A DNA stretch of 64,000 bases from positions 1 through 64,000 of IMG/VR virus record IMGVR_UViG_3300019370_000055. One strand, written 5' to 3'. Shown one piece after another: positions 946 through 39,398 of the stretch. Origin of the DNA: a virus (Duplodnaviria > Caudoviricetes). Below the pieces are notes generated by a model. That model did no database searches, was not told the origin of the DNA, and saw nothing but the letters and a program-made list of their open reading frames with translations. How positions within the stretch are numbered: position 1 is the stretch's first letter; the number at the start of each line of letters is the position of its first letter. The position numbers and the translations under genes are program-made.

Positions 946-1389
946 ATTGCCAAAGAACAAATCCTTTCCGTATAGCCTTATCATTCACTGGCGAATACGT
1001 CTACGCATCACAACCGTATCCGTTGGCAGTTTCCGATGCTGATTTACTAAGCTACGTAACTATGCACCTATGAAATTTAAGGGAGCAACGTGCCACGGAT
1101 CATCAGCCGAAGCCAATTACCGCAAGAAGGAAATGGGATGCTACCTCCTTCCGACACACCGCTCAAATCAGCAAAATGTCAATAAACCATGCAAGCAGCG
1201 TCCAGATGCAAGTATCGAAAAAGTGTTTTAGGATGCCATCAGGCAGAGCCACGGCATACATCCTCCTTCTGAAATAACGGATATTGTTTTCACCAGTAAA
1301 GGCCAGTATTATTTCAAGCCATTAAGGGCTACTAAGTCTAATCCAAGTTTGTGTACTAAATTTGATGCACCACAAACAGCTTCAAGAAT

Positions 1390-7082: not shown

Positions 7083-7379
7083 TTAATAAATAAAACAGAT
7101 AATACAATCGCTTACAGGCTTTTTGAATTTCACATTACGGATTTCAGCGGTATTAGTACCGCCAAGAGCAATACTTGAAAAGTTGCCCAAACCATCCGTG
7201 GTGTACTCAAAACCGTCCATAAAAAATTCAGTATAAGCCGCCGTTTTCATGGTGATGTGATATAATTTGTCTGCACGTGAACTTGGCTCCACCTTTTTAA
7301 TCTGCGCCAAACACCGATCAACTACATTTTCATTTGCCGCAAAATTCTGATGAATCAATCCACCTTGTTTTCTTACCAT
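7083..7379 (-). CDS. Hypothetical protein
   Basis: ORF track; RBS AGGTGGTGA. Confidence 0.65.
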   Translation of the reverse strand: MVRKQGGLIHQNFAANENVVDRCLAQIKKVEPSSRADKLYHITMKTAAYTEFFMDGFEYTTDGLGNFSSIALGGTNTAEIRNVKFKKPVSDCIICFIY

Positions 7380-7413
7380 TACTTCACCACCTTTATAAAT
7401 CGAGTTCTTTATG

Positions 7414-8343
7414 TCATTCTGCCAATATCACATAATCAACTTCTTCCAAAGTCATATCATCAAAATCACTCAAAGGATGATCGTCCATTTCTGACAATAA
7501 CCGATAACGTTTTAGTCCTGCTCTTGCCATACAATCTAAATACATTTCGGTTTGTCCAAAAATAAACTGAATCAAAACATCTGTCATATCCGCAAGTAAA
7601 CAAAGAGAATTTTCAATCTCGGCAAACTTTTTTAGTTGCCAATCTATATCTGCGCTTGCACTTAAATACATTTCCGCATTTACATCATGCAAAACCTTTT
7701 TTAGTACATAATCACTAATAGGTTCTGCAAACATATGTGTAATGGCATTGCCTCCTGTTGTAAGTTGATAAAAAATCGAAGTCGGTGCAACATCAAGATA
7801 CAAATTAATATCTTCAACACCTACGTTTTTCAAACTCGAAAAGTCAATGTCTGCGGACAACTCAAGACTTGGCATAAATTTTTCCAAACTGCACTTTAAT
7901 GTTTCAAGTTCATTTACCAGCAACATCATATCAAACTCAGTTCTGTCGAAAGAATGAGCGATAGAATAATCCAGTGGGTCAACAGAAATTTCCAGAACAG
8001 AATCACCGCTACTAAAACTTTTTTCCACAACATCCATTTCACTTGCGAACAATTCCATTACTGTTTCACCACTGGTAAGCACACCATTTAATAAATTTAC
8101 ATCAACATCTAAGTGCATTTCATTAAAAATTTTCTCATATACTTTTTCTAAAATGTCATCAATTTTAGCATTTAAAAACACGGCTGAATCAACATTTAAA
8201 TTCTTACGTATTTCTAAATCGCCCATCGAGCAATACATATAGAGCCAATCATACATAGAGAAAGAATCTCTTTGAACTAACTGCGTGATAATAACATTAA
8301 TTTCGGTGAGCCGCTTTTTCAAGTAAACATCATAAGTCTGCAA
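7414..8343 (-). CDS. Acidic hypothetical tail/baseplate protein
   Basis: 309-aa ORF, TTG start after AGGTGA, within the tail operon. Confidence 0.65.
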   Translation of the reverse strand: MQTYDVYLKKRLTEINVIITQLVQRDSFSMYDWLYMYCSMGDLEIRKNLNVDSAVFLNAKIDDILEKVYEKIFNEMHLDVDVNLLNGVLTSGETVMELFASEMDVVEKSFSSGDSVLEISVDPLDYSIAHSFDRTEFDMMLLVNELETLKCSLEKFMPSLELSADIDFSSLKNVGVEDINLYLDVAPTSIFYQLTTGGNAITHMFAEPISDYVLKKVLHDVNAEMYLSASADIDWQLKKFAEIENSLCLLADMTDVLIQFIFGQTEMYLDCMARAGLKRYRLLSEMDDHPLSDFDDMTLEEVDYVILAE

Positions 8344-8371
8344 CTATCTCACCTACTTTCTTTGTGTGATT

Positions 8372-8773
8372 TTAAGTTGGATTTGCAAGAGTCAATTTTA
8401 AGCTCCCTGTTTTCACCATAACAATCGTTGCGGTTTCAACACTTCGAGATTGTGACAGCACATTATACATAAGCAAGTTGCCATTTACAGGCGCATCGTA
8501 TAAAACAAAGTGCGTAATTGTACCCCAACTTGCAGAACTCTCAGGAAACGAAATATCGGAATCATTTGTAATCACACCATTTGCTGGTTCGCCTAAAGTA
8601 GTCAATTCAACACGTTCATAACCACCAGACGCAAGCGGCTCCGAAACCCCCGAACCATCAATACTTGGTGCAGTAGAACTCAGGCCAAGATAAACCTTAC
8701 TTGGCAAAGTTGGATTCTTTTTGGTCTGAAACACATTGCCCATGATACAATTCAGAAAATATGTAGAAGTCAT
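8372..8773 (-). CDS. Minor tail protein
   Basis: VYLGLS...GYERV...ISFPESSASWGTITHFVLYDA motif seen in siphophage minor tail proteins. Confidence 0.7.
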   Translation of the reverse strand: MTSTYFLNCIMGNVFQTKKNPTLPSKVYLGLSSTAPSIDGSGVSEPLASGGYERVELTTLGEPANGVITNDSDISFPESSASWGTITHFVLYDAPVNGNLLMYNVLSQSRSVETATIVMVKTGSLKLTLANPT

Positions 8774-8812
8774 ACTACGTTCAACCTCACTTTCTCAAAT
8801 TAAATTTTGTCT

Positions 8813-9196
8813 TTATTCCAAAAAACTTTCATTGATATTGTGGGCAATAAAGAAAATCCCATGATTAGGGATTTCAGCTTCTCCATCAATATCTTTGATA
8901 GTAATTTGATAAATATATTTCCCCCATAATCCCAAAGTATCTGCTGGTAACAAATCTACAGAAGCAATATTTTTAACTCCTGTCTCATCATCGCCAATGC
9001 TAAATGTAAGAGATTTTGAGATCAATGGATCGCCAGTCTTATCAGAATAGTCCACTACTGCAAAATTACCTGTGCATCCATCCGCATTAAATGGAACTTT
9101 CTTTTCTGTTAATAGCCTCCAGCGGAGGGTTTGAGACTGACCAGCAACAAACACGATTTCAGGCAAAGTAAATACATCATGTCGCATAATAATCAC
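8813..9196 (-). CDS. Baseplate upper protein (BppU-N-like)
   Basis: 'LLPADT..L.GKYIYQITI' beta-sandwich pattern; directly after Dit. Confidence 0.55.
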   Translation of the reverse strand: MIIMRHDVFTLPEIVFVAGQSQTLRWRLLTEKKVPFNADGCTGNFAVVDYSDKTGDPLISKSLTFSIGDDETGVKNIASVDLLPADTLGLWGKYIYQITIKDIDGEAEIPNHGIFFIAHNINESFLE

Positions 9197-14395: not shown

Positions 14396-17300
14396 TTACG
14401 GTTTCAATGTCGTGCCAAGGCTCTTATGTCCCCGCTTTATAAAGCTGTCAGTGATTTGCTGGATCGTACTTTGACTAATTTTCCTTGTCAACTGCTTAAT
14501 CTCCGCATCATCCATCTTTTGTGCTGGATAGATTTGTACTGGAACATCAATATTAAAAGTGTCACCGCCCTGTCTTACAACCGCTTGTGCCTGTTTCGCA
14601 TCCTGCTTAATTTGTTCTTGCATTTTAAGTTCTGCTAAATCAGAGCCAGAAAACGAATTGAAAAGTTTCCCGTACTTACCTAACAGCGTTTCCGCAAAAT
14701 CAAGTGTACGATATAAAGGTTCTTGCTGTTTTTCGGTAATAACAGCCTCACCCTTCTCCAGCTTTGCGAAGATTTCTTTCTGCTTTAGAGTAGGCTCATC
14801 CCCAACAATGCCGCCAGTATGATATACACTATAAGGATAAGTCTCATACAGCTTCGGCCCACCAACTCGATCCAGATACCAAACACCATCATCACCACGT
14901 ACAGCGGTACGACCAATCAGCGAAGTCAACTGCTTACCTAAATCAAGGTTTGCTTTATTCAGTCTGGCTTTGCCAGCAGCATCCGCACTATGATGTGCCG
15001 CCGAGTTTTCTTTCATCTGGTGAACAATATTTTTCACTTGCCCCAAAGTCTGGCTTCCACTGGTGTCATAGTTTCCAGTAGCACCAATCGCAGAGCCGCC
15101 TTGAGGTTTCCCGCCAGAAGAACCGCCGACTACATTAGAACCAGAACTTGACTCATATGATGCAATCTGCCGTTGTGTCTCCAGAATAGCATTTAAATAA
15201 CTGCCATACTGTTGAACCGCTGCGCTTGCTGCATCCCATGCTTTGGTGATTTCATCGTTAGTAACAGAGCCATATTCATAGTTCCAGTTAATCAAATCCT
15301 GATATAACGTGTTCCAATGATTATTAATCCGATCAATGGCAAGCTGATACAGCTTTTCTTCAGAAGAAATTGTATTCTCCAGAATGTCAATTTCTTTCTG
15401 CTTTTCCTTTTCATAAGAATCAGCCATATCATCAAGCATATCGCTGGTAGCGTCATAGGCATGATCTGATTGATAATCCGCAAGGTCATTAATCTTTTCA
15501 GAAAGTTCCTCTTGCAGTTTGGCCTTTTTCACCGCTGCTTCACGACTATCATCCAAGTCAAGCGCATGAATTTGTTTCTGTAAATCCGCAATTTCTTTCT
15601 GCTTGTCTGAAACAGTCTTTGTATAATTATCTTTTTCCTTTTCCAGTTCAAGCGACTTCTTTTGTAAATCTACGATTTCCTTATATGCGTCAACCTGATC
15701 CTCCAGAGCCTTAACCTGATTCTTGACTTCCTGTTTAATCATTTCTTCAACGTATTTAAGCAAGTCCTCAAGTGCGCTGGCCTGATCCTCGACAGCCTTC
15801 TTTGCCGCCCCATCAACCTTACCAATACTGGTAATAGCAACGTCCGACAGAGAACGCAAAGCATTAATGCGGTTCAAAGCGTTATTGTACTGTTGCTGAT
15901 CCAGCCCTAACAACTGCAACTGCGCATATACCAAATCCCAAGTAGAACTTGAGGCCGCATTTGTTGCTGTAGTAAGATTCATAAGTGCTACAACATCATT
16001 ATCAGCCAATGCCTGTCTAAGTTGCTGAACATAGTTTAATGCTGTTTCAATCGCCATCTGCTGTGTACGAGCAGCGATTACCTTTTGAATGTTTTCCTCA
16101 TTGATAACCAACATCCCATTTTCATCTTGCAAATAGGCCAGATTCTCAACACCAAGTTTAGCAATCTCTTGGAAAGTAGAGACTGTTATATAACCACTTT
16201 CAGAAAATTCCTTTGCCGCATCTTTAAGAGTATCATACAGGCCAGTAATTTGATCCAGAGCATCATGAGCATTATCAACTACCTGTTGCCAAGCATCGGC
16301 AGATACAGTCTTGATTTCATCATAGTAATCCCACCACAAGTCCTCCAGCTTTGTAATTTCATCGCTGGTATCTGCATATCCGAGAGAACGATAATATTCC
16401 GCTTCTTGACGAACCGCCTCTTGCATAGCCCGATAATGGTCAACAATCTCGCCTGTGTTTCGAGTAATCTCGCCACGGTCATTTGATTCAATCGCATGAT
16501 TAAGCAGATTTTCATTCTTTGTAATTGCATTTTCATGTTCTTTAGCCGTATTTTCATAAATGGCAATATTAGCTTCTTGAATCTTGTATGCTAACTCCAC
16601 CCAAGAATCAGAATTTTCCTGATTAGCTTTATTAAGTTCCCCTAATGTATTAATCAGACTTTCCGTATCTTTCCGAAGTGCATTTGTAGCTTCTTGCAAA
16701 GAGCCATATTTGCCTTTACTATCTGCGGTTAATTCATTTAAATGCTCCAGATTCTTAACAAAGAAATTATTCTTGTCAGGATCATACTCAACATCAAATC
16801 CAAGCTGGCGAAGTGATTCAGTACCATCTTTAATAGTTTGATCACGTAATTCATTCAAATCATGAAGCGCATCTTGTTCCTCTTTGTAAACACCAATTAA
16901 TTCTTGCTGAAGTTCAATTTGTGTTCTTAGATCATTGGTATTTAAAAGTTGAGTTTCTAAGTCGCTTTTCTTAATTTGAACACGGTTAAGCCGCTCGATT
17001 GCTTCACGGTAATCATCAATAGCAGCAATATATTCTTCAATCTCTTTTGTTGAGGAACCAGAGCCGCTTTTAAAATTCTTGAGTGGTGCATTTTTTAATG
17101 CTTGCAAAGCCGCAATCTGACCATCAATTTGAGAAATGGCCTTCTGATAAGAAGATATATCAAGTTCAACCTGAGATACAAAATCTTCTAAGGACGCACC
17201 CTTAAAATCAAAATCAAAGTCAAACCCATTAAATTCGCCAGAAGTAATATTTGTCTTAATTTTGTCACGTAATTTTCCACCAAAAGAGCCAGCAAATTTT

Positions 17301-19918
17301 GTTACAGAACCTTTAACTACACCATTTGCCATACCCTCAATCGCTTTGGCACTTTCATGGGCTTGTTTTGCCACAGAAGCAATATCGGTCTTGGCTCTTT
17401 CCATATTCTCATAGATGCCCATAGCGGCATTATAAGCTGCTGCATTAAAATTACCATCTACATCAGTACAAACATCTCTTGCAACACGATCAAATTCCTC
17501 TGCATTCAAGGCCATTGATTGTGCCGCTAACTTATACGCCTCGGCTTCATCAATACCATTATCAATTAATGCCTGAACCATTTCATTAGATGCTTTAATA
17601 CGATACTCTGCAACCTCTTTTGCTACCTGACCTTCACCTTCACCAACATTTTTTGCCAGTTCAAGTTGTGCCTGTGCCGCTTGCATCTTTGCTTCAAGAA
17701 CAGTCTTATCAGCTTGAAGTTCTGCGATTTGTGTATCAATTTGAGTATCTAATTCTTTCTTTTTGCTCGTTAAGAAACTATTTACAACTTCTTTATTTAA
17801 GGCAATTTGCCCATTAGATGACACTTGGGCATTATTAAGAATCTCTGGATATACTTTTGCAAATTCTAACGCCTTGTCCAAGGACATAGTAAAACCGTTT
17901 GCTACTTGAGCCTGTAAATCTGCAAGTGTCTGGAATGAATCAGAAACAGAATCAATCGTATTTGCTATATTAATGAAATTATTAAGAGCGGAGGCATAAG
18001 CATTTGTGTCACCAGTAATGCTCCCATATAAACTGCTATAAAGTGTTAATTTCGCTTGATTTGCAGCAATGGCCTCTGTGTTTGCATTTATCTCATCTGT
18101 TGTATCTTTGATTTTTTTATCCCAAGCCGCTATTGATGAAGTATCACCAATACTCATACTCTTATTGGTACGATACATTTCTAAACTTTGAGCCAGAACT
18201 TCATTTCTTTCTTCTAAAGAACTAATCTCTTTTTGAATTTCATCTATATCGCCCAACATTTTAGTATTGGCATTTTCTTTCCACGCCTCAGTATTGAGTT
18301 TAATTACACCATTTTCTTCATACAGATAATCAAGGTAATTAGCTTCGGCCTCTGCCAAATCAGCAATCGTATCAGGTGATAACCCACCCCCACCAGCCAT
18401 TTCTTCTTGCGCCGTTGCCAGAACATCATAAGCAGACTGCAAATCAGACAACGTTTCTGTAAGATCAGAAAGTTGAGCAGAATAGCGGCCTGTGGATTCA
18501 GCATTACTATCGGTTTCGACTTTTAATGCGTTATAATGACTTGCCAATTCATATGCTGTATAACCAGAATCCTCCATCCACTTTGCAAGTTCTTGATACT
18601 GACCAGCTAATTCATTAATTCTCTCTGCTGTTAAACCACCCTCAGACCCCTCGCTATTTAATACGTCCTTCAAATCATTAGGAAGTTTTTCAAGTAAAGA
18701 TGTAAAATGTTCTGCTGGGTTGATACAAGCATCAATCGCATCAGCAAGGTTATTCCAATTCTTAACATCATCGCCATCACCAACAAAATTATCAATATAA
18801 TCGTTTTGCAAAGTTTGACTAAGTGAAAGCAACTCGCTTCGGATTGAAGCCATTTCTGCAATTTGACTATCGGTTGCATTTTGACCTAAACCTTCTAATT
18901 CCTTATATCTTGCAATCAGTTGGTCAACATAATCATCAAATCCAAGTTGTTCTGGATATTGTAATTTATTATTGCCCTCTAACATCAAATTCTGATATTC
19001 AGAATAAAGATTTATTAGTCTCTCTTGTTCCTCTTCACTGAACTTATCCCAATTTTCAGACCAACCATTATGCCATTCTTCTAATGCTTTAAAACCTTCT
19101 GCATTATTCGCTCGAATAGCATCTGCATCAAACAGCATATACATTCCGGCATTAGAATTATAATATTCGTTATTATAATCTTTAACCAAACTCTTATTAG
19201 ATTTATCTGCTGCCTCTTGAGCAGCTTCATTCTTTAACCGAATTTGACGTTCTAATTGTGCATTGGTTTCTAACAGACGATCCAGTTCCTCTTGTTCAAC
19301 GAGAGTTATTCTACCTTCATCAGATAATTTTTGAAGTTCAGCAATACGATCTTTTGTTGTCTTTAATTCGGAGTTTAGTCCATCAAGTTCACTTGCTAAA
19401 TCATCATATTCTTGCTTCAGTTCTTCAGTTGTCTTGTGAAATTTATTGAACAGATTAATTGCCATTGGAACTATTGCGATTAAGAGAGAAATCGCAGTTA
19501 CAGCAATCATAAAAGGATTTGCTGCCATAACAGCAGTTAATCCACTCATAGCCGCAGACAGACCGCCTGTAGCAGCGGTAGCAGCGGTTTCAGCGGCAGT
19601 AAAAGTTGTAGCTGCTACCGCATCTTTTATTTGCGCCTTTTCAAATCCAGCAGCACTCATTGCAGCCATCGTTGCTTGTTCAGAAAATTGCAATGTTGCC
19701 ATTGTTGCGGCTGTTTGTGTAGCCGTAAAACCAGATGCCTTTAAGGACGAAGCAACTTGTTCTGCACTAAGACCACTTAAACTAACAGTTGCGGCTATTT
19801 GTGCCTCATTTAATCCTTGTAACGATAAGTTCAAAGAATCAAATGTTGCTTTTGATATACTTCCACTAACAGCAATTTCTTTTAATATAGCAGAAACATT
19901 ACCTATGGATTTAAGTGA
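14396..19918 (-). CDS. Tape measure protein, exon 2 (annotated alone as a 1841-aa ORF from 19921)
   Basis: Long helical/coiled-coil ORF with hydrophobic 'AANPFMIAVTAISLLIAIV' and C-terminal 'YHTGGIVG'. No Shine-Dalgarno before its ATG. Confidence 0.85.
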   Translation of the reverse strand, partial: SLKSIGNVSAILKEIAVSGSISKATFDSLNLSLQGLNEAQIAATVSLSGLSAEQVASSLKASGFTATQTAATMATLQFSEQATMAAMSAAGFEKAQIKDAVAATTFTAAETAATAATGGLSAAMSGLTAVMAANPFMIAVTAISLLIAIVPMAINLFNKFHKTTEELKQEYDDLASELDGLNSELKTTKDRIAELQKLSDEGRITLVEQEELDRLLETNAQLERQIRLKNEAAQEAADKSNKSLVKDYNNEYYNSNAGMYMLFDADAIRANNAEGFKALEEWHNGWSENWDKFSEEEQERLINLYSEYQNLMLEGNNKLQYPEQLGFDDYVDQLIARYKELEGLGQNATDSQIAEMASIRSELLSLSQTLQNDYIDNFVGDGDDVKNWNNLADAIDACINPAEHFTSLLEKLPNDLKDVLNSEGSEGGLTAERINELAGQYQELAKWMEDSGYTAYELASHYNALKVETDSNAESTGRYSAQLSDLTETLSDLQSAYDVLATAQEEMAGGGGLSPDTIADLAEAEANYLDYLYEENGVIKLNTEAWKENANTKMLGDIDEIQKEISSLEERNEVLAQSLEMYRTNKSMSIGDTSSIAAWDKKIKDTTDEINANTEAIAANQAKLTLYSSLYGSITGDTNAYASALNNFINIANTIDSVSDSFQTLADLQAQVANGFTMSLDKALEFAKVYPEILNNAQVSSNGQIALNKEVVNSFLTSKKKELDTQIDTQIAELQADKTVLEAKMQAAQAQLELAKNVGEGEGQVAKEVAEYRIKASNEMVQALIDNGIDEAEAYKLAAQSMALNAEEFDRVARDVCTDVDGNFNAAAYNAAMGIYENMERAKTDIASVAKQAHESAKAIEGMANGVVKGSVTKFAGSFGGKLRDKIKTNITSGEFNGFDFDFDFKGASLEDFVSQVELDISSYQKAISQIDGQIAALQALKNAPLKNFKSGSGSSTKEIEEYIAAIDDYREAIERLNRVQIKKSDLETQLLNTNDLRTQIELQQELIGVYKEEQDALHDLNELRDQTIKDGTESLRQLGFDVEYDPDKNNFFVKNLEHLNELTADSKGKYGSLQEATNALRKDTESLINTLGELNKANQENSDSWVELAYKIQEANIAIYENTAKEHENAITKNENLLNHAIESNDRGEITRNTGEIVDHYRAMQEAVRQEAEYYRSLGYADTSDEITKLEDLWWDYYDEIKTVSADAWQQVVDNAHDALDQITGLYDTLKDAAKEFSESGYITVSTFQEIAKLGVENLAYLQDENGMLVINEENIQKVIAARTQQMAIETALNYVQQLRQALADNDVVALMNLTTATNAASSSTWDLVYAQLQLLGLDQQQYNNALNRINALRSLSDVAITSIGKVDGAAKKAVEDQASALEDLLKYVEEMIKQEVKNQVKALEDQVDAYKEIVDLQKKSLELEKEKDNYTKTVSDKQKEIADLQKQIHALDLDDSREAAVKKAKLQEELSEKINDLADYQSDHAYDATSDMLDDMADSYEKEKQKEIDILENTISSEEKLYQLAIDRINNHWNTLYQDLINWNYEYGSVTNDEITKAWDAASAAVQQYGSYLNAILETQRQIASYESSSGSNVVGGSSGGKPQGGSAIGATGNYDTSGSQTLGQVKNIVHQMKENSAAHHSADAAGKARLNKANLDLGKQLTSLIGRTAVRGDDGVWYLDRVGGPKLYETYPYSVYHTGGIVGDEPTLKQKEIFAKLEKGEAVITEKQQEPLYRTLDFAETLLGKYGKLFNSFSGSDLAELKMQEQIKQDAKQAQAVVRQGGDTFNIDVPVQIYPAQKMDDAEIKQLTRKISQSTIQQITDSFIKRGHKSLGTTLKP

Positions 19919-19936
19919 CATTTCAATAAAATACTC

Positions 19937-19964
19937 TTGCTTCTTAATGGGAATATGTTATAAT
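19937..19964 (+). promoter_or_regulatory. sigmaA promoter of the intron cargo gene
   Basis: TTGCTT-16 bp-TATAAT with extended -10 (TGnTATAAT). Confidence 0.7.
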
Positions 19965-20000
19965 ATGGTTGAATTAAATTAATTGTTGGAGGATGATATA

Positions 20001-20528
20001 ATGTCGCTCATTAAATGTCCAGAATGCAACAAAGAAATTAGCGATAAATCAGAAGTTTGCATACATTGTGGATTTCCAATTAAAGCCCAATCAGAATTGT
20101 TAAAACCGCATACGTGTAATATAAATGGCAAAATTATTGATTTTTCAAACGTTTATAATGCAATTCCAATATCAAGAGATGACTATTTAAAGTTAGATAT
20201 TTATGATCAATTTAAATATAGTAAGCAAGTTGTACAAAATATCCAATCTACGATTTCTATAAATAGCCTTGCTGCTAATTATCTTGCTGAACAAATTCTT
20301 GAAACAGGAGAAATACCTAAAGAATTTGATGCAATTAAATATGAAGCACAGGACAATCAAAATAAAATTGATAGGCAAAATATCATGCAAATTCATTGTC
20401 CTCGTTGTGGTTCCACTTCTATCACCACAGGAGCCAGAGGTGTAAACTGGACGCTGGGCTTGATTGGAGCCAGCAAAACAGTCAACCGTTGTGCCAAATG
20501 TGGACATACATGGACTCCACATAAGTAA
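20001..20528 (+). CDS. Double zinc-ribbon protein, antisense cargo inside the intron
   Basis: GGAGG at 19988-19992, then ATG 20001. CPECNK...CIHCG at the N-terminus and CPRCGS...CAKCG at the C-terminus. No GIY-YIG, LAGLIDADG or clear HNH motif. Confidence 0.85.
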   Translation: MSLIKCPECNKEISDKSEVCIHCGFPIKAQSELLKPHTCNINGKIIDFSNVYNAIPISRDDYLKLDIYDQFKYSKQVVQNIQSTISINSLAANYLAEQILETGEIPKEFDAIKYEAQDNQNKIDRQNIMQIHCPRCGSTSITTGARGVNWTLGLIGASKTVNRCAKCGHTWTPHK

Positions 20529-20963
20529 TTGAATTTCTTACGCCCCTCTCAGGACTTGGTAAAGAATAGAACTAAATTCATAAAGGTTCTATCCACTATA
20601 CATTATAAGTCATAAACACTTATGGCGGTTTATGGCTCAAAGAATCGGTAGTCTCTGAGGATTCAGGCCACTAAGGTCTGTGTCCTACTGATTGCCTCTT
20701 GTCAACAGTCCGTAGCACAGGATCACTCCTGCTTTTATCTCAGCATAGACCATCCAGATAATTTTTTCTGCTTTCGCAACATTCACGCCTATCATTACTG
20801 ATTACGTTGTAGTTTATCTGGCCCTTGAAGGCTTTCCAGTATTTACTTCTTTGATTATTTTAGAACTCCCATCACTATGCTTTGTTAGTTACGCCATATT
20901 GTAACTTTCTCAGCATAATTAGACTCACTATCATCCATAGGTAGTGTGTGATCTTATCACTCA

Positions 20964-23900
20964 ATCCAAGTTCTTTACAAATGCAGCAATTCCAACTCCA
21001 GCAAGTGCCGTTCCAAACGGCCCAATTAATGAAGTCACGAAATCAATCGCACTGGCTAAACCAGTAAGCATATCAATAATTACACCAATTTCTTCTCGCT
21101 TAAACAAATTCTGAAAAATTCCTGTGCCAGTTTCTTTCAGCGCATTCAATTTAAATTCAAGCGATTTGGTGATAATCTCCATTTCCGCATCTGCATTACC
21201 AGCACTCTCAGCCATGTTATTCATTGCCTTTTCCGCAGCTTCAAAGTTTTGCAGAATAGCTTGACCAACGCTGGCTCTATTCTTGCCGAACAGCTTCTCC
21301 ATCAACTGTTGCTGTTGCTTTTCGCTAAGATCATCATAAACCTCAGAAATATCTTTTAAGTATTGATAAACTGATTTATAATGTTCTTGTGTTTCATCCG
21401 TAAACAAAGAAACACCTTGAGAATTTTCAGTTGCCTTCGTCAAATCATAAACTTCACCAGTAATATTTGCAAGTTCTTCTGAAAGTTCTCCTGTTTCCTC
21501 ATCATACCCACGCACACGCATAGAAATACTACGTAGAGCGTTACCAACTTTTGAATCATCTTGGGTAATTTCTTGTGCCGCAGTAAACAGCGCAACGTTT
21601 TCTTCCAATGTGGAGTTCATCGCCGCCATAGCTGACGCTGAATTTTGTAAGCCATTAATAATCTCTGCATTTGACGTTGCTGCCGTATTGCCAACGATAT
21701 TAATTTTCGACATTACGCCATCAAGCACTTCTTCAGCCTCAATACCATAGGCTTTCATGACACTAACCAATCCAGTTGTTGCCGTTCCAATATCTACGCC
21801 TGGGGAGATTGCTGAGAATTGAGCCGCCAGTTTCGCCATCATTGTGGAACTGGTTTTGTCGCTATAGCCCAAACGTGACCAATCCGCCGCTGACTGAATA
21901 ATATCCTTTGTTGTTACACCAAGTTTCTTAGCGGCATCATTAGCTTCTTCATAAAAAGAAACCAAATCTGATCCAGACATTGTAGTTGTCTTTTGCAAGT
22001 CAACCAATGCTGTATCAAGTTCAACAACTGTATTTACGCCTTCTTTGATTACGGAAATAATTTTCCGTATAACCATTACTCCGCTTGTTAGACCAAGCAG
22101 TTGTAAAGTAGTATTTTTAAGAGAAGTTGCAAATTGACTTGTCACAAGGCCAGCAACTTTAGCTTCAGACTTTATCTTAGCCAATTCTGCTCTTGCTTTA
22201 GCAAGCATTATTGGATCACTGTTATTGGCTAAAAGGGCTTGTATTTCACGTAACTTATCACCATATACTTGAGCGGCCTTTGTATTCTGATTCATCCATG
22301 ATTCAATAGAATTTGAAAGAGTGGATGATTTCGTCATTGTCAACTGTGCCGCAGTATCATCTTTAACAGCTTTTTCGTGTTCTCTTGTAGCCTGTTCCGC
22401 AGCTTTTGATTGCCTTGCCATTATGTCAAGATCATTAGATACTCTTTTGATTATTGCATCATATTGGTCATAGGCATTAATAACTTGTGCATTATTTGTA
22501 CTTGTTGCAATAGTTTCTGCCAAAGAACGCAAATGTACAAAATTGCTTTGTATAGATTGAGCAGAACTATCAGAGACATTTTTCAAGGCCAAAAACTTAG
22601 TTTCTAAAGCACTAATACTATTTTCTAATGAATTAGACTTTGCTTGATCACGATAGTTGTTTGCTGTCTGCATAATAGCATCAGCAACTTTTCCTTCTGC
22701 TATTGCTAATTTGCCGGCGTTTTCAGCAGTTTGAATAACATAATTATTAAATTCTTTAGAGTAGTTAATTAATTCAGGATGGACACTTACAGTTCTTTCA
22801 ATTTCAGATGTAATTCTACGCCTATATTCATACTGTAATTGAAGTTGATCATTAAGTGCTTTATATTCATTTGAATCCTTACCTTTTCCAACCATAGATT
22901 TCTCAAGGCCAGAAATTTTACCCTGAATGGTTTGTAAGGCTTGATACTTTCCGTTTAACCCTCTAAGTTGTTCTTGGAAAACTTTTACGTCTGCTTTCAA
23001 TAAATCAAAACCATTTAAATAAGCTGTCAATGAATTATTATCAAAAGCATTACTTAATTTCCCAGTTAATTCAGTAATCCGATTTTTAAATTCTGCTGTT
23101 AAGACACCAGCATTATCGAGATGACTTTCAAAAAGGGCTAATTTTGATAGTTCTTCTTCTTTGATAGGCGCAATATCCTTAGTTCTAAGCTGAGTGGCAA
23201 CATATTCCGCATTTTGATATTCTTTTGCCAAACGCTTCAAATCTGCAATCTGAGAACTAATATTCGACCTTTGCTTTTGTGATAATGCACCATCGGAACT
23301 TTCCAGTTGTTCAATTTGAGTTTTTATTGATTGATATTGTTTTTCTAATTCTCTTAAATGACTTTCATCATTAACACTTTTAGGAGAATTTTGATTAGTA
23401 TAAGCGGATGCAATATCTTTCAACAAAGACTTCTGTTGAGACAAATACTTAACTCGTGCATCATTTTCGGCCTGTGCCTTTTTTGCTAAAGTATCTTGTT
23501 CTTTTTGCTGCGCTTTTAAATTGTCTGTGATTGCAGTTTGTGTCCGTACAACTTCTCCCGTTTCTACATTGAATTGTTTTGTTATAGAGACAAGTTTACC
23601 TTGTTCCGTTGAACCTTGAATCATCAAGTTCAAAAGTTTCTGTGTAGATTCAGTTCCATCATCTTCGGCTTTTTTCACTTCAACCCATTTATGCTGAACC
23701 TTTTCCAAAGCAATATTCATAGAGGTGAATTCTTTCATTAATTCTTTCGCACCAGAATCACTAATCTTCAAGCCAGACAGTTCACTTTTGATACGTTCAA
23801 TGTTACTTTGTTCAAGGCTAATATTGACTTTAATATCTTTCACAGTCAAAGACTGATTAAGTTGCTTGGCAATGTTATTAATCTGCGAAGTGATTTGCTC

Positions 23901-24044
23901 ACTCCGAATATTATCAATCTTGGCACTTAAAGTAATTTCCTTTTTGCCAATATTAGTCAACACTCGGTTTAAGTCTTGATCCATCTGTTCTGTAGTTTTT
24001 GCTATATCTAAACCTAATACAATCTGACCATCCACATCAGGCAT
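20964..24044 (-). CDS. Tape measure protein, exon 1 (TP901-type core)
   Basis: 'VELDTALVDLQK', 'AADWSRLGY', 'VGNALRSISMR', 'LFGKNRA' TMP core. Ends ...AAFVKNLD at the predicted 5' splice site. Confidence 0.9.
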
Positions 24045-37733: not shown

Positions 37734-37809
37734 TGGCTCCTGCGACTGGACTTGAACCAGCGACTCCTTGATTAACAGTCAAGTGTTCTACCAACTGAAC
37801 TACACAGGA
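37734..37809 (-). tRNA. tRNA-Asn(GTT)
   Basis: TCCTGTG..AGTTGGTA..CTTGA-CTGTTAA-TCAAG..GGTTCAAGTCC..CGCAGGA-GCCA cloverleaf. Confidence 0.92.
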
Positions 37810-37845
37810 ATATAAAAGGCCAAGGGATAAAAACCCCTTGGCTTC

Positions 37846-37919
37846 TGGTAGAAGGTGTCGGACTCGAACCGCTATACCACATCCCAAATGTGGTGTGTTA
37901 CCATTACACTACACCCTCT
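37846..37919 (-). tRNA. tRNA-Pro(TGG), atypical T stem
   Basis: Anticodon arm CCACA-TTTGGGA-TGTGG, GTTCGAGT loop, CCA end. T stem pairs only 3 bp. Confidence 0.7.
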
Positions 37920-37926
37920 ATATAAT

Positions 37927-38020
37927 CCACAATAGGCCGAACGACACTTCGGCATCTCCATTTCGCCAGTACGCACAATCCGGCATTGGTGATAGCTGCC
38001 TGTTCTATCCTCTATTGTGG
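37927..38020 (-). ncRNA. Candidate structured RNA (four-way junction) between tRNAs
   Basis: Closing stem CCACAATAG/CTATTGTGG enclosing three hairpins; strand assumed from the operon. Confidence 0.5.
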
Positions 38021-38137
38021 CATTGCTGTCTAAAGCAACTACTAAATAATGTGCCTTATTCAGATGTGTTGTAACTCCAGCAACAAAGTTTGTTTATAGC
38101 AAAGAAAGGAGACTCGCTGCCGCTTACCCAAGGCGGC

Positions 38138-38222
38138 TGGTACTGCTGACGGGGATCGAACCCGTATGCCTCAAGGCGAGGGATTTTAAGTCCCTTGTGT
38201 CTGCCAATTCCACCACAGCAGC
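38138..38222 (-). tRNA. tRNA-Leu(TAA)
   Basis: GCTGCTG..GGAATTGGCAGAC..AGGGA-CTTAAAA-TCCCT, long variable arm, CCA end. Confidence 0.93.
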
Positions 38223-38229
38223 ATATTTA

Positions 38230-38460
38230 TTATTCATCCCAAGGAATACAATCATATAAATCGACTGGAGAACTTGCAGTTTTCATTTTAATAAATCCCT
38301 TATCAACTATCTTCCACAATGTAAATTTTTGTTTTTCTGTATTTTGACTTATTTGATACTTTTGACCAGACTTTCTTGCACATAATACTCCTGCTCCATT
38401 TTCAGATGTAGGAATATTCTTTACTACTTTTTCGCTGGTTTCTTCAGATTTCTTTCTCAT
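38230..38460 (-). CDS. Small hypothetical protein
   Basis: ORF track; ATG at 38460 overlaps the upstream stop. Confidence 0.6.
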   Translation of the reverse strand: MRKKSEETSEKVVKNIPTSENGAGVLCARKSGQKYQISQNTEKQKFTLWKIVDKGFIKMKTASSPVDLYDCIPWDE

Positions 38461-39098
38461 AAATAACTCCACCTATAATGATATGCTGTTTTGCGGTTTC
38501 CTTTACACACAGAACTTATATGTGCAGCAGCACCAGATATTAATTTCACATCATCTGTTTGAAGAACATATCTTGCGGCATCTGTTTCACTCGAAAATGA
38601 TTTTATAAATTCTCCATTCAAAGAAAACATATTGATATTTTTGCCACAGACTTTATTTATAACTTGATTTCCTGAAGCAAGTTTAACATTCCTTATATTC
38701 AATATATTTTTTACTGTAGCTATATCTATACCGACAATTTTTGCTGTTTCTTTTTGATTATGAGTTAATTCATATATGCGAACCACTAAATCATAATCGA
38801 CATACTGTGTACCATCTCCACCAACCGTTGCATTATATCCATTTCTATATGTATCATAATAATTTATCCAATATCTTTCTCTTTCAGAAAGAATTAAATC
38901 ACTACAAGTTTCAACTTCACTTATCTCAAAATTTTCAATACCATATTTTCTTATTGCACGATATAATGGTCTGTTTTGGTATCTGTCTTTCTGGCAATCA
39001 TTACAATGCTCCTTCCATCGCTCTTGAATTGTAAACATTGTCTTACCAATATAACACTTACCATTAATTTTATTTACTATTTTATAAATAAATGGCAT
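38457..39098 (-). CDS. Free-standing GIY-YIG homing endonuclease with NUMOD1-like C-terminus
   Basis: FIYKI...CYIGKT...RWKEH...ERYWI...GYN; 'IKSFSSETDAAR'; lies among tRNA genes. Confidence 0.88.
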   Translation of the reverse strand: MPFIYKIVNKINGKCYIGKTMFTIQERWKEHCNDCQKDRYQNRPLYRAIRKYGIENFEISEVETCSDLILSERERYWINYYDTYRNGYNATVGGDGTQYVDYDLVVRIYELTHNQKETAKIVGIDIATVKNILNIRNVKLASGNQVINKVCGKNINMFSLNGEFIKSFSSETDAARYVLQTDDVKLISGAAAHISSVCKGNRKTAYHYRWSYL

Positions 39099-39117
39099 TT
39101 ATATCACCTCTATTTTA

Positions 39118-39193
39118 TGGTAGGGGCAGTAGGAATCGAACCTACGTTTCTGGCGTGAAAGGCCAGCGTCTTAACCACTTGACTAACGCCCCG
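39118..39193 (-). tRNA. tRNA-Glu(TTC)
   Basis: CTGGC-CTTTCAC-GCCAG anticodon arm, GTAGG-TTCGATT-CCTAC, CCA end; acceptor stem slightly irregular. Confidence 0.82.
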
Positions 39194-39263
39194 TATTATT
39201 GAATACACCGTTATATCTTTTAAACTTTTGCCAGTTGGCTTACTGTTCCTCCTGACATTATTT

Positions 39264-39292
39264 ATTATAATTGATTATACCGTTATTGTCAA
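39264..39292 (-). promoter_or_regulatory. Consensus sigmaA promoter with operator-like motif in its spacer
   Basis: TTGACA-ataacggtataatcaat-TATAAT (17-bp spacer). Confidence 0.85.
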
Positions 39293-39323
39293 GAGGTTTT
39301 TTGAAATTTCTTTAAAAAATTTT

Positions 39324-39398
39324 TGGTGGGAGAAAAAGGACTCGAACCCTTTCCCTTTGGGCTTCAACCAAATGCTCTACCTGTTAAGCTATTCTCCC
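39324..39398 (-). tRNA. tRNA-Phe(GAA)
   Basis: GGGAGAA/TTCTCCC acceptor, TTTGG-TTGAAGC-CCAAA anticodon arm, CCA end. Confidence 0.88.

Follow-up and report, generated by a model that had tools for sequence, protein, structure and literature searches.

An antisense zinc-ribbon gene residing in a spliced group I-type intron of a phage tape-measure gene

Group I introns of phages are understood as ribozymes paired with homing endonucleases that are encoded on the same strand. The DNA examined here, positions 1 to 64,000 of IMG/VR virus record IMGVR_UViG_3300019370_000055 (the ‘window’), departs from this picture: a tape-measure gene on its minus strand is interrupted by an element that harbors a small plus-strand gene, encoding a protein with two zinc ribbons and no recognizable nuclease domain. 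What is this interruption, and why should a gene facing the other way reside in it? We conclude with high confidence that the locus is a spliced group I-type intron whose 3' loop carries an antisense zinc-ribbon gene with its own promoter, and that this gene has a fixed residence there in related phages, among neighbours that vary.

Splice sites and ribozyme core

Two long open reading frames (ORFs) lie in tandem on the minus strand, 20961-24044 (1027 amino acids, aa) and 14396-19921 (1841 aa), separated by a gap of 1039 nucleotides (nt). The final 400 aa of exon 1 match the middle of single tape-measure proteins in Brevibacillus phage Sundance (2528 aa) and Bacillus phage Tsamsa (3123 aa), which run on for 1400-2100 residues beyond the matched part; a tblastn search of isolated phages with the N-terminus of exon 2 returned no match. 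The joined tape-measure product is ~2870 aa long (coordinates of all features are collected in Table 1).

The exon boundaries are set by pairing. Exon 1 ends in UUGGAU (20969-20964), followed by UGA, and a guide of the form GUGA/GUCUAA (20928-20919) lies forty nt downstream. Helix P1 forms between UUGGAU and GUCUAA (20924-20919), with a U.G pair at the 5' splice site, while P10 forms between the guide GUGA (20928-20925) and the UCAC of exon 2 (19918-19915), directly after G19919; together they define an in-frame junction, FVKNLD/SLKSIG. P1 covaries among relatives (UUAGAU/GUCUAG, CUAAGU/GCUUAG, UGGCU/GGUCG), and in locus L004, where exon 2 has UCGC, P10 is kept through a G.U pair.

Removal of the element from RNA, with exact ligation of the exons, is observed in two contigs assembled from RNA libraries of two different studies (X17 and X18), in which 19917/18 is joined to 20963/64 and exactly 1045 nt are skipped; on either side of the joint, every letter of the X17 contig agrees with the window. 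These contigs bear out the intron proposed in an initial annotation of the window, made from the letters alone, but that annotation had placed the intron end at 19922. The actual end is G19919, and the apparent ‘ATG’ at 19921-19919 consists of the last three intron bases. No contig of IMG/VR viral DNA has the exact 24-nt joint. Neither RNA run X15 nor X20 showed the joint; in X15 a single contig spans the entire stretch and may derive from DNA or from unspliced RNA.

An unsplit relative, L097, was found by a degenerate junction pattern. Its frame, of at least 2286 aa, reads uninterrupted over the junction (...GIAAFVKNLG SLKSAANL...), with 77% identity over the last part of exon 1 and 39% over the first part of exon 2. 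A further match of this pattern, in L096, is not in a tape-measure gene and was discarded as chance. The base before exon 2 is G in all 31 related loci compared, and the two bases preceding it vary, so that the triplet ahead of exon 2 is ATG, TTG, GTG, AAG, GAG or TAG; none of these loci has a ribosome-binding site there. Lacking a start codon and a ribosome-binding site of its own, exon 2 is not translatable alone in many phages.

The intron's 5' 420 nt constitute a conserved structured RNA. In a covariation test on 13 sequences (with helices named according to our own reading), standard pairs occupy 94.9% of cells, whereas sliding the partners leaves 31-40%, and both sides have changed in 39 of 66 helix pairs, a number reached in none of 500 shuffles. 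Such two-sided changes back P2, P3, P4, the P5-type helices and P8; P7 (GACUA/UAGU) is invariant and hence uninformative. After the P7 3' strand, UAUAGU, window-type introns have a G and a covarying hairpin (GGAUAGAAC/GUUCUAUUC; window 20564-20600), and this arrangement makes the G-binding pair G.G as aligned. In a sister group (L058, L063, L070) the canonical UAUAGUCC stands in its place. Taken together, the splice-site pairing, the RNA joint, the unsplit relative, the exon 2 that in many relatives is startless and the conserved structured RNA all speak for an intron.

In a Staphylococcus Silviavirus phage, a profile of the core matches (nhmmer, E-value 3e-29) three elements in tandem that are scored by the group I model of Rfam, RF00028. 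A blastn search located a 110-nt part of the core in 119 phages, where it falls into gaps that split genes and bear no annotation, as in the DNA polymerase III alpha gene of Lactococcus phage AM1. In the intron clade itself Rfam found neither group I nor group II matches at 12 related loci, under gathering or E-value thresholds. Staphylococcus phage relatives of the core, which serve as a positive control, also remain under the threshold (31-49 bits, for a gathering score of 50), and the silence of Rfam was for this reason not taken as absence.

In three loci (L023-L025) a second, partial core-profile match lies in exon 1, ~650 nt upstream of the first (E-value 5e-17), which suggests that these tape-measure genes hold another intron. 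In Fusobacterium phage Fnu1 (L003, 1275-3118) a core of the same family lies upstream of a gene annotated as a transposase, and a RAGATH-18 RNA hit marks the far end; the whole looks like an IStron-like composite beside a DUF1983 tail gene.

Table 1. Positions of the intron, its exons and the antisense gene in the window
Feature	Positions	Strand	Description and basis
Group I-type intron	19919-20963	-	1045 nt, from U20963 to omega-G19919; joint in RNA contigs and unsplit allele L097
Ribozyme core	20545-20963	-	P1 loop, P2, P3, P4-P6 domain, P7, P8 and P9 hairpin; covariation of helices
Internal guide GUGA/GUCUAA (P10 and P1 strands)	20919-20928	-	Pairs with both exon ends
Tape-measure exon 1	20964-24044	-	1027 codons, C-terminal end ...FVKNLD; PF10145 PhageMin_Tail at residues 702-920
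Tape-measure exon 2	14396-19918	-	Begins SLKSIG...; in frame with exon 1 once spliced
Double zinc-ribbon gene, 175 aa (phrog_2546 family)	20001-20528	+	878 homologues, dN/dS, AlphaFold2 model
Ribosome-binding site GGAGG	19988-19992	+	8 nt ahead of ATG; CCTCC-like complement kept in relatives
Sigma-A-type promoter	19937-19964	+	TTGCTT (19937-19942), 16-nt spacer including TG extension, TATAAT; within the final 46 nt of the intron
Proposed looping helix, 3' arm	19922-19927	-	5' arm at 20528-20533; not supported

The antisense gene and its product

The plus-strand ORF that separates the ribozyme core from the 3' splice site begins with ATG at 20001 and ends with a stop codon at 20526-20528. Since its homologues are 170-175 aa long, this ATG is taken as the true start, and a TTG at 19983 was rejected. 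The gene is under purifying selection, as judged from ratios of nonsynonymous to synonymous substitution (dN/dS) of 0.18 between the window and L004 and 0.17 between L016 and L017. Its G+C content is slightly low (33.7% vs. 37.8%).

Upstream of the gene lies an extended -10 element, TGtTATAAT (19956-19964). A promoter scan of the window did not list this site, because its -35 hexamer matches at just three of six positions. When the 80 nt upstream of the gene were searched for TGnTATAAT with at most one mismatch, an extended -10 was present in 30 of 44 distinct relatives, compared with 3.6% of control windows. RNA contigs from two studies start at 19972 and 19973, 7-8 nt past the -10, a weak hint that transcription begins there; read depth in the RNA contigs, where it differs from exons to zinc-ribbon region, is not usable as evidence of expression. 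No intrinsic terminator follows directly on the stop codon. The sole terminator-like hairpin with a T-run on this strand, at 20718-20731, lies 190 nt past the stop and is the complement of an intron hairpin; it might end the antisense transcript within the ribozyme core.

Much of what the initial annotation said of this gene holds: its place between core and 3' splice site, its own extended -10 promoter and ribosome-binding site, the two CxxC...CxxC ribbons without an endonuclease motif and, essentially, its being the only plus-strand gene (between 1.5 and 54 kb). A helix between UUCAAU (20533-20528) and AUUGAA (19927-19922), which had been proposed to loop the cargo out, did not withstand scrutiny. 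The two segments are complementary, yet a perfect helix of at least 6 bp between these regions arises in 658 of 2000 shuffles (33%), three of its six pairs are broken in L004, it has no counterpart in L010 or L005, and no compensating changes were seen. As another pairing partner, the conserved CAAG of the 3' tail was considered and set aside, being better explained as the complement of the TTG in the -35 element.

The predicted protein matches phrog_2546, a family of unknown function (E-value 5e-14), and has 878 homologues at an E-value of 1e-3 or better inside the length band searched. An alignment of 51 members shows a variable middle and two invariant features, the eight cysteines of the ribbons and a C-terminal signature, CPxCGSxxITTGxRG...G..G..KTVNRCxxCGHxWxP. 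An AlphaFold2 model with a predicted local distance difference test score (pLDDT) of 85 consists of an N-terminal and a C-terminal ribbon with a helical domain between them.

Pfam assigns only generic zinc-ribbon families to the window protein and to 50 of the 51 relatives, and no nuclease family was detected by Pfam (the protein and its 51 relatives), NCBIfam or PHROGs (the protein). Nor is a nuclease domain fused to any of six longer relatives. The initial annotation had called for structure prediction as a safeguard against a cryptic nuclease, and on the predicted model this, too, gave no fold match: Foldseek against the PDB retrieved nothing at an E-value of 1e-3 or better (top rows being TFIIS or ribosomal zinc ribbons, with template modeling (TM) scores of 0.15-0.2), a wide VIA-align search reached a top Z of 4.1 with TetR-like helices and assigned no fold, and the ESM Atlas yielded unnamed, virus-rich zinc-ribbon clusters only. 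A cryptic active site embedded in a ribbon is nevertheless conceivable. A homologue with 43% identity is encoded in a bacterial chromosome with housekeeping genes around it.

At two loci (L083, 3683-4273, and L087, 3602-4171) the C-terminal ribbon module alone is constant, still antisense beside a long tape-measure exon. The N-termini differ, that of L083 being SHOCT-like and that of L087 a different Cys-rich one.

A fixed gene among variable neighbours

Eighty viral loci were compared, all of them fetched by way of the zinc-ribbon protein family, so that introns with other cargo would be missed. At 63 of the 80 the gene lies antisense directly beside exon 2 (recognized as a long minus-strand ORF with an SLxKIG-like start), and at 42 of these 63 an exon-1-like segment follows further along on the same strand; the intron core was detected by profile search at 33 of the 80. 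Identity of the zinc-ribbon protein to that of the window ranges from 65% down to ~30%, and the gene is always the part nearest to the 3' splice site. On the strength of this antisense position at 63 loci the zinc-ribbon gene is regarded as the constant element: throughout a large phage clade it is a constant resident of the intron site, while further genes between it and the core come and go.

In the window, L004 and L010 no DNA cargo separates the core from the zinc-ribbon gene, and the insert measures 1.0 kb. At other loci extra genes, on one strand or the other, add as much as 3 kb, and inserts run from 1.0 to 4.1 kb. The extra cargo includes DUF6173 with unknown ORFs of 270 aa and 101 aa (L044, L046), DUF2513 (L032) and unknown proteins of 375-425 aa (L029, L039, L072), the unknown cargo proteins overall spanning 265-425 aa. 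Two loci (L030, 5656-6687, and L012, 9085-10116) encode, on the strand of the host gene, a 343-aa DUF262/GmrSD_N protein that PADLOC matches to NsnA (E-value 6.5e-37) and that is, by sequence, defence-like. In L005 a second, upstream tape-measure intron (7089-9034) carries a same-strand ORF of 286 aa with DUF4379, CapR and DUF723 matches, a putative homing-endonuclease-like gene; the 186-aa middle exon of this locus matches the end of PhageMin_Tail.

These comparisons divide the initial annotation's picture of the intron as a slot for exchangeable cargo. The core is indeed conserved between homologous split loci, and the amount and kind of extra cargo do vary; the zinc-ribbon gene itself is invariant (63 of 80), an outcome which that annotation had named as telling against its own proposal.

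The gene also occurs outside any intron. At nine loci it is sense-oriented and lies two genes upstream of an unsplit tape-measure gene, between orthologues (58% and 53% identity) of a 213-aa and a 155-aa gene that adjoin each other in the window; most of these free-standing copies are without an extended -10. The intron-less L097, in a record that is 74% complete, has no copy of the gene.

Segments of the locus differ widely in their divergence. Between the window and L010, identity is 87% at the end of exon 1, 92% (nt) in the core, 46% in the zinc-ribbon protein and 33% at the start of exon 2, and over 37 loci the identities of the four segments are weakly correlated (Spearman 0.19-0.41). The idea that the zinc-ribbon gene is co-inherited specifically with exon 2 was dropped, all of the segment correlations being weak. 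This mosaicism, with the weak correlations, marks the intron region as a frequent recombination boundary, a pattern that, so far as sequences can tell, would fit homing-type exchange and ordinary modular recombination equally well.

The phage of the window is an SPbeta-like mouse-gut phage. The window is part of a 124-kb record whose completeness is rated 97%, and mouse-gut metagenomes from 12 studies hold DNA near-identical to it. Two tyrosine-recombinase genes in the phage genome make a temperate life possible. Elsewhere on the minus strand of the window (1036-1346 and 37737-39398), Rfam reports a reverse-transcriptase-associated RT-2 RNA, five tRNAs and a skipping-rope RNA.

Known systems and rival explanations

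Introns of the Twort/Kayvirus, SPO1 and Lactococcus phages (subgroup IA2-like, with three in Twort orf142, for example) have a P3-P6 core homologous to that of the window, and share with it residence in a late structural gene, a U.G pair in P1 at the 5' splice site and a terminal G before exon 2. In contrast to these introns, that of the window is not scored by RF00028, has extra P2 and P6 elaborations and a hairpin after the P7 3' strand, and contains an antisense ORF with no recognizable endonuclease, where Twort-type introns have a same-strand HNH or GIY-YIG gene or no ORF.

For cargo placed 3' of a group I core, IStrons and the T4 nrdD intron offer precedents (PMC3984707). In the IStron CdISt1 of Clostridioides difficile, a group I intron has an IS200/IS605 element embedded in its 3' end (PMC3984707); there too, the cargo stands between ribozyme core and 3' splice site, and splicing tolerates kilobases at that place. 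In the window, by contrast, a small antisense zinc-ribbon gene, fixed at a single target site, takes the place of the transposing element; a transposase ORF was sought in 19919-20963 and not found, the product of the sole ORF matching ribbon families only.

Like the window intron, the T4 nrdD (sunY) intron with I-TevII (compare PMC3984707), along with other introns that have an ORF 3' of the core, has its core at the 5' end, followed by a long 3' extension with an ORF in it, so that the 3' splice site is remote; in T4, however, this ORF is on the intron strand and encodes a GIY-YIG endonuclease, whereas that of the window is antisense and has no detected nuclease. Opposite-strand genes that need a promoter of their own are found among the antisense His-Cys box homing endonuclease genes carried by group I introns of the nuclear ribosomal DNA (PMC9548176); these introns are eukaryotic and encode a recognizable His-Cys nuclease, whereas the window intron lies in a protein-coding phage gene and shows no nuclease signature. 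The zinc-ribbon gene resembles phage ‘morons’ in its sigma-A-type promoter and ribosome-binding site, its orientation against the late operon, its absence from some relatives and its slightly lower G+C. Unlike morons, it is found inside an intron of an essential gene and has no intrinsic terminator directly after its stop, and its position is conserved over deep divergence, whereas typical morons are sporadic. No description of this combination in phages was found in the literature on tape-measure introns.

We interpret the locus as an intron that tolerates the stretch between P9 and the 3' splice site as a peripheral loop and would thereby let the zinc-ribbon gene, with further cargo, reside harmlessly within an essential gene. 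Production of the zinc-ribbon protein would then not depend on the late tail operon and would fall early in infection or in the lysogenic state, and the protein would not be the intron's nuclease. That it is an accessory nucleic-acid-binding protein using the intron as a harmless site seems to us somewhat better than an even bet. Several observations weigh against this interpretation as a whole. The joint comes from assembled RNA-library contigs, with a short side of only 24 and 30 nt; the G-binding pair of P7 is G.G in eight of the 13 sequences, including the window; and RF00028 is silent on 441 nt, 1501 nt and all 64,000 nt, even at an E-value of 10. The N-terminal ribbon alone has a weak match to a PADLOC ‘HEase’ model (E-value 2e-4), the biochemical role that we give to the protein is purely inferred, and a gene that is tied to one intron site, and is also free-standing near the same target, behaves, by its distribution, like a homing endonuclease gene.

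The last of these points leads to the rival in which the zinc-ribbon protein is the mobility factor of the intron, a new antisense homing endonuclease or its DNA-targeting part that cuts intron-less alleles; the free-standing copies upstream of unsplit tape-measure genes would then represent a stage of ‘collaborative homing’. We consider this unlikely, though it carries real weight. Among tape-measure genes diverged to below 30% identity, gene and intron are found strictly together and at one site; the intron-less L097 is without the gene, and the minimal 1045-nt intron holds no other ORF. Known homing endonuclease families are likewise both intronic and free-standing (PMC3984707), and antisense members are known from nuclear group I introns (PMC9548176); strong regional mosaicism relative to L010 and the weak PADLOC match point in the same direction. 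Yet neither Pfam nor NCBIfam recognizes a nuclease family, the conserved residues other than zinc ligands are confined to the ribbons, and the gene is not more alike between lineages than the exons are, as a recently homing element would be. Moreover, typical nuclease-like ORFs are additionally present in some relatives, either within this insert or within a second intron, and chromosomal homologues lie in non-mobile surroundings.

Those chromosomal homologues, found outside prophages, also count against a role of the protein in the tail or tape-measure module, whether as an assembly or ejection factor or in helping or timing the splicing of tape-measure RNA, as do the sigma-A (housekeeping-type) promoter of the antisense copies, which is not that of late-operon transcription, and the related phage L097, without a copy in 74% of its genome. 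Such a role is improbable in our estimation, although it would explain why the gene stays beside the tape-measure gene in either orientation, with a sense copy inside the tail operon of nine phages (most lacking the extended -10) and a copy inside the tape-measure gene at the remaining 63 loci; such zinc ribbons often bind RNA, and the weak matches of the protein are to ribosomal proteins and TFIIS-like ribbons. We regard as very improbable the proposal of the initial annotation in its original form, by which whole cargos are swapped in an intron slot, the zinc-ribbon gene being one of many, and the UUCAAU/AUUGAA helix loops them out. Extra cargo does differ between homologous loci, including the defence-like NsnA/DUF262 gene, the zinc-ribbon gene has its own promoter, and the recovery of loci through this one protein would let same-site introns with different cargo escape; but every split locus so recovered contains the gene, the only intron-less allele found has no cargo, and the helix is neither conserved nor above chance level. 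Scarcely credible, finally, is the absence of any intron, with two separate large tail genes and, in the intergenic region between them, a small divergent gene plus a structured RNA. The silence of Rfam and the ATG at the head of the window's second ORF would agree with it, but it is contradicted by the joint in the RNA contigs, the unsplit homologue that is colinear over the junction, the AAG, TAG or GAG found before exon 2 in relatives that have no ribosome-binding site, and the in-frame junction set by P1 and P10.

A bolder interpretation would see intron and zinc-ribbon gene as a long-lived composite element of a new kind, in which the last ~46 nt of the ribozyme double as the antisense promoter, a product without a nuclease fold aids spread or retention (by homing, targeting or excluding intron-less competitors), and the loop, within an essential phage gene, is a safe harbour in which defence-type genes gather; we think this distinctly unlikely, if conceivable.

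Because the standard Rfam model misses this entire intron clade, many phage genomes probably have split tape-measure genes of this type wrongly annotated as two genes. What sets the clade, one of large gut phages, apart from the accepted picture of phage introns is that it keeps an antisense, separately promoted gene without a recognizable nuclease domain at a single intron site in the tape-measure gene, with variable further cargo beside it. Either the gene encodes a new class of intron mobility protein, or self-splicing introns act as neutral landing pads for accessory and defence genes within essential genes.

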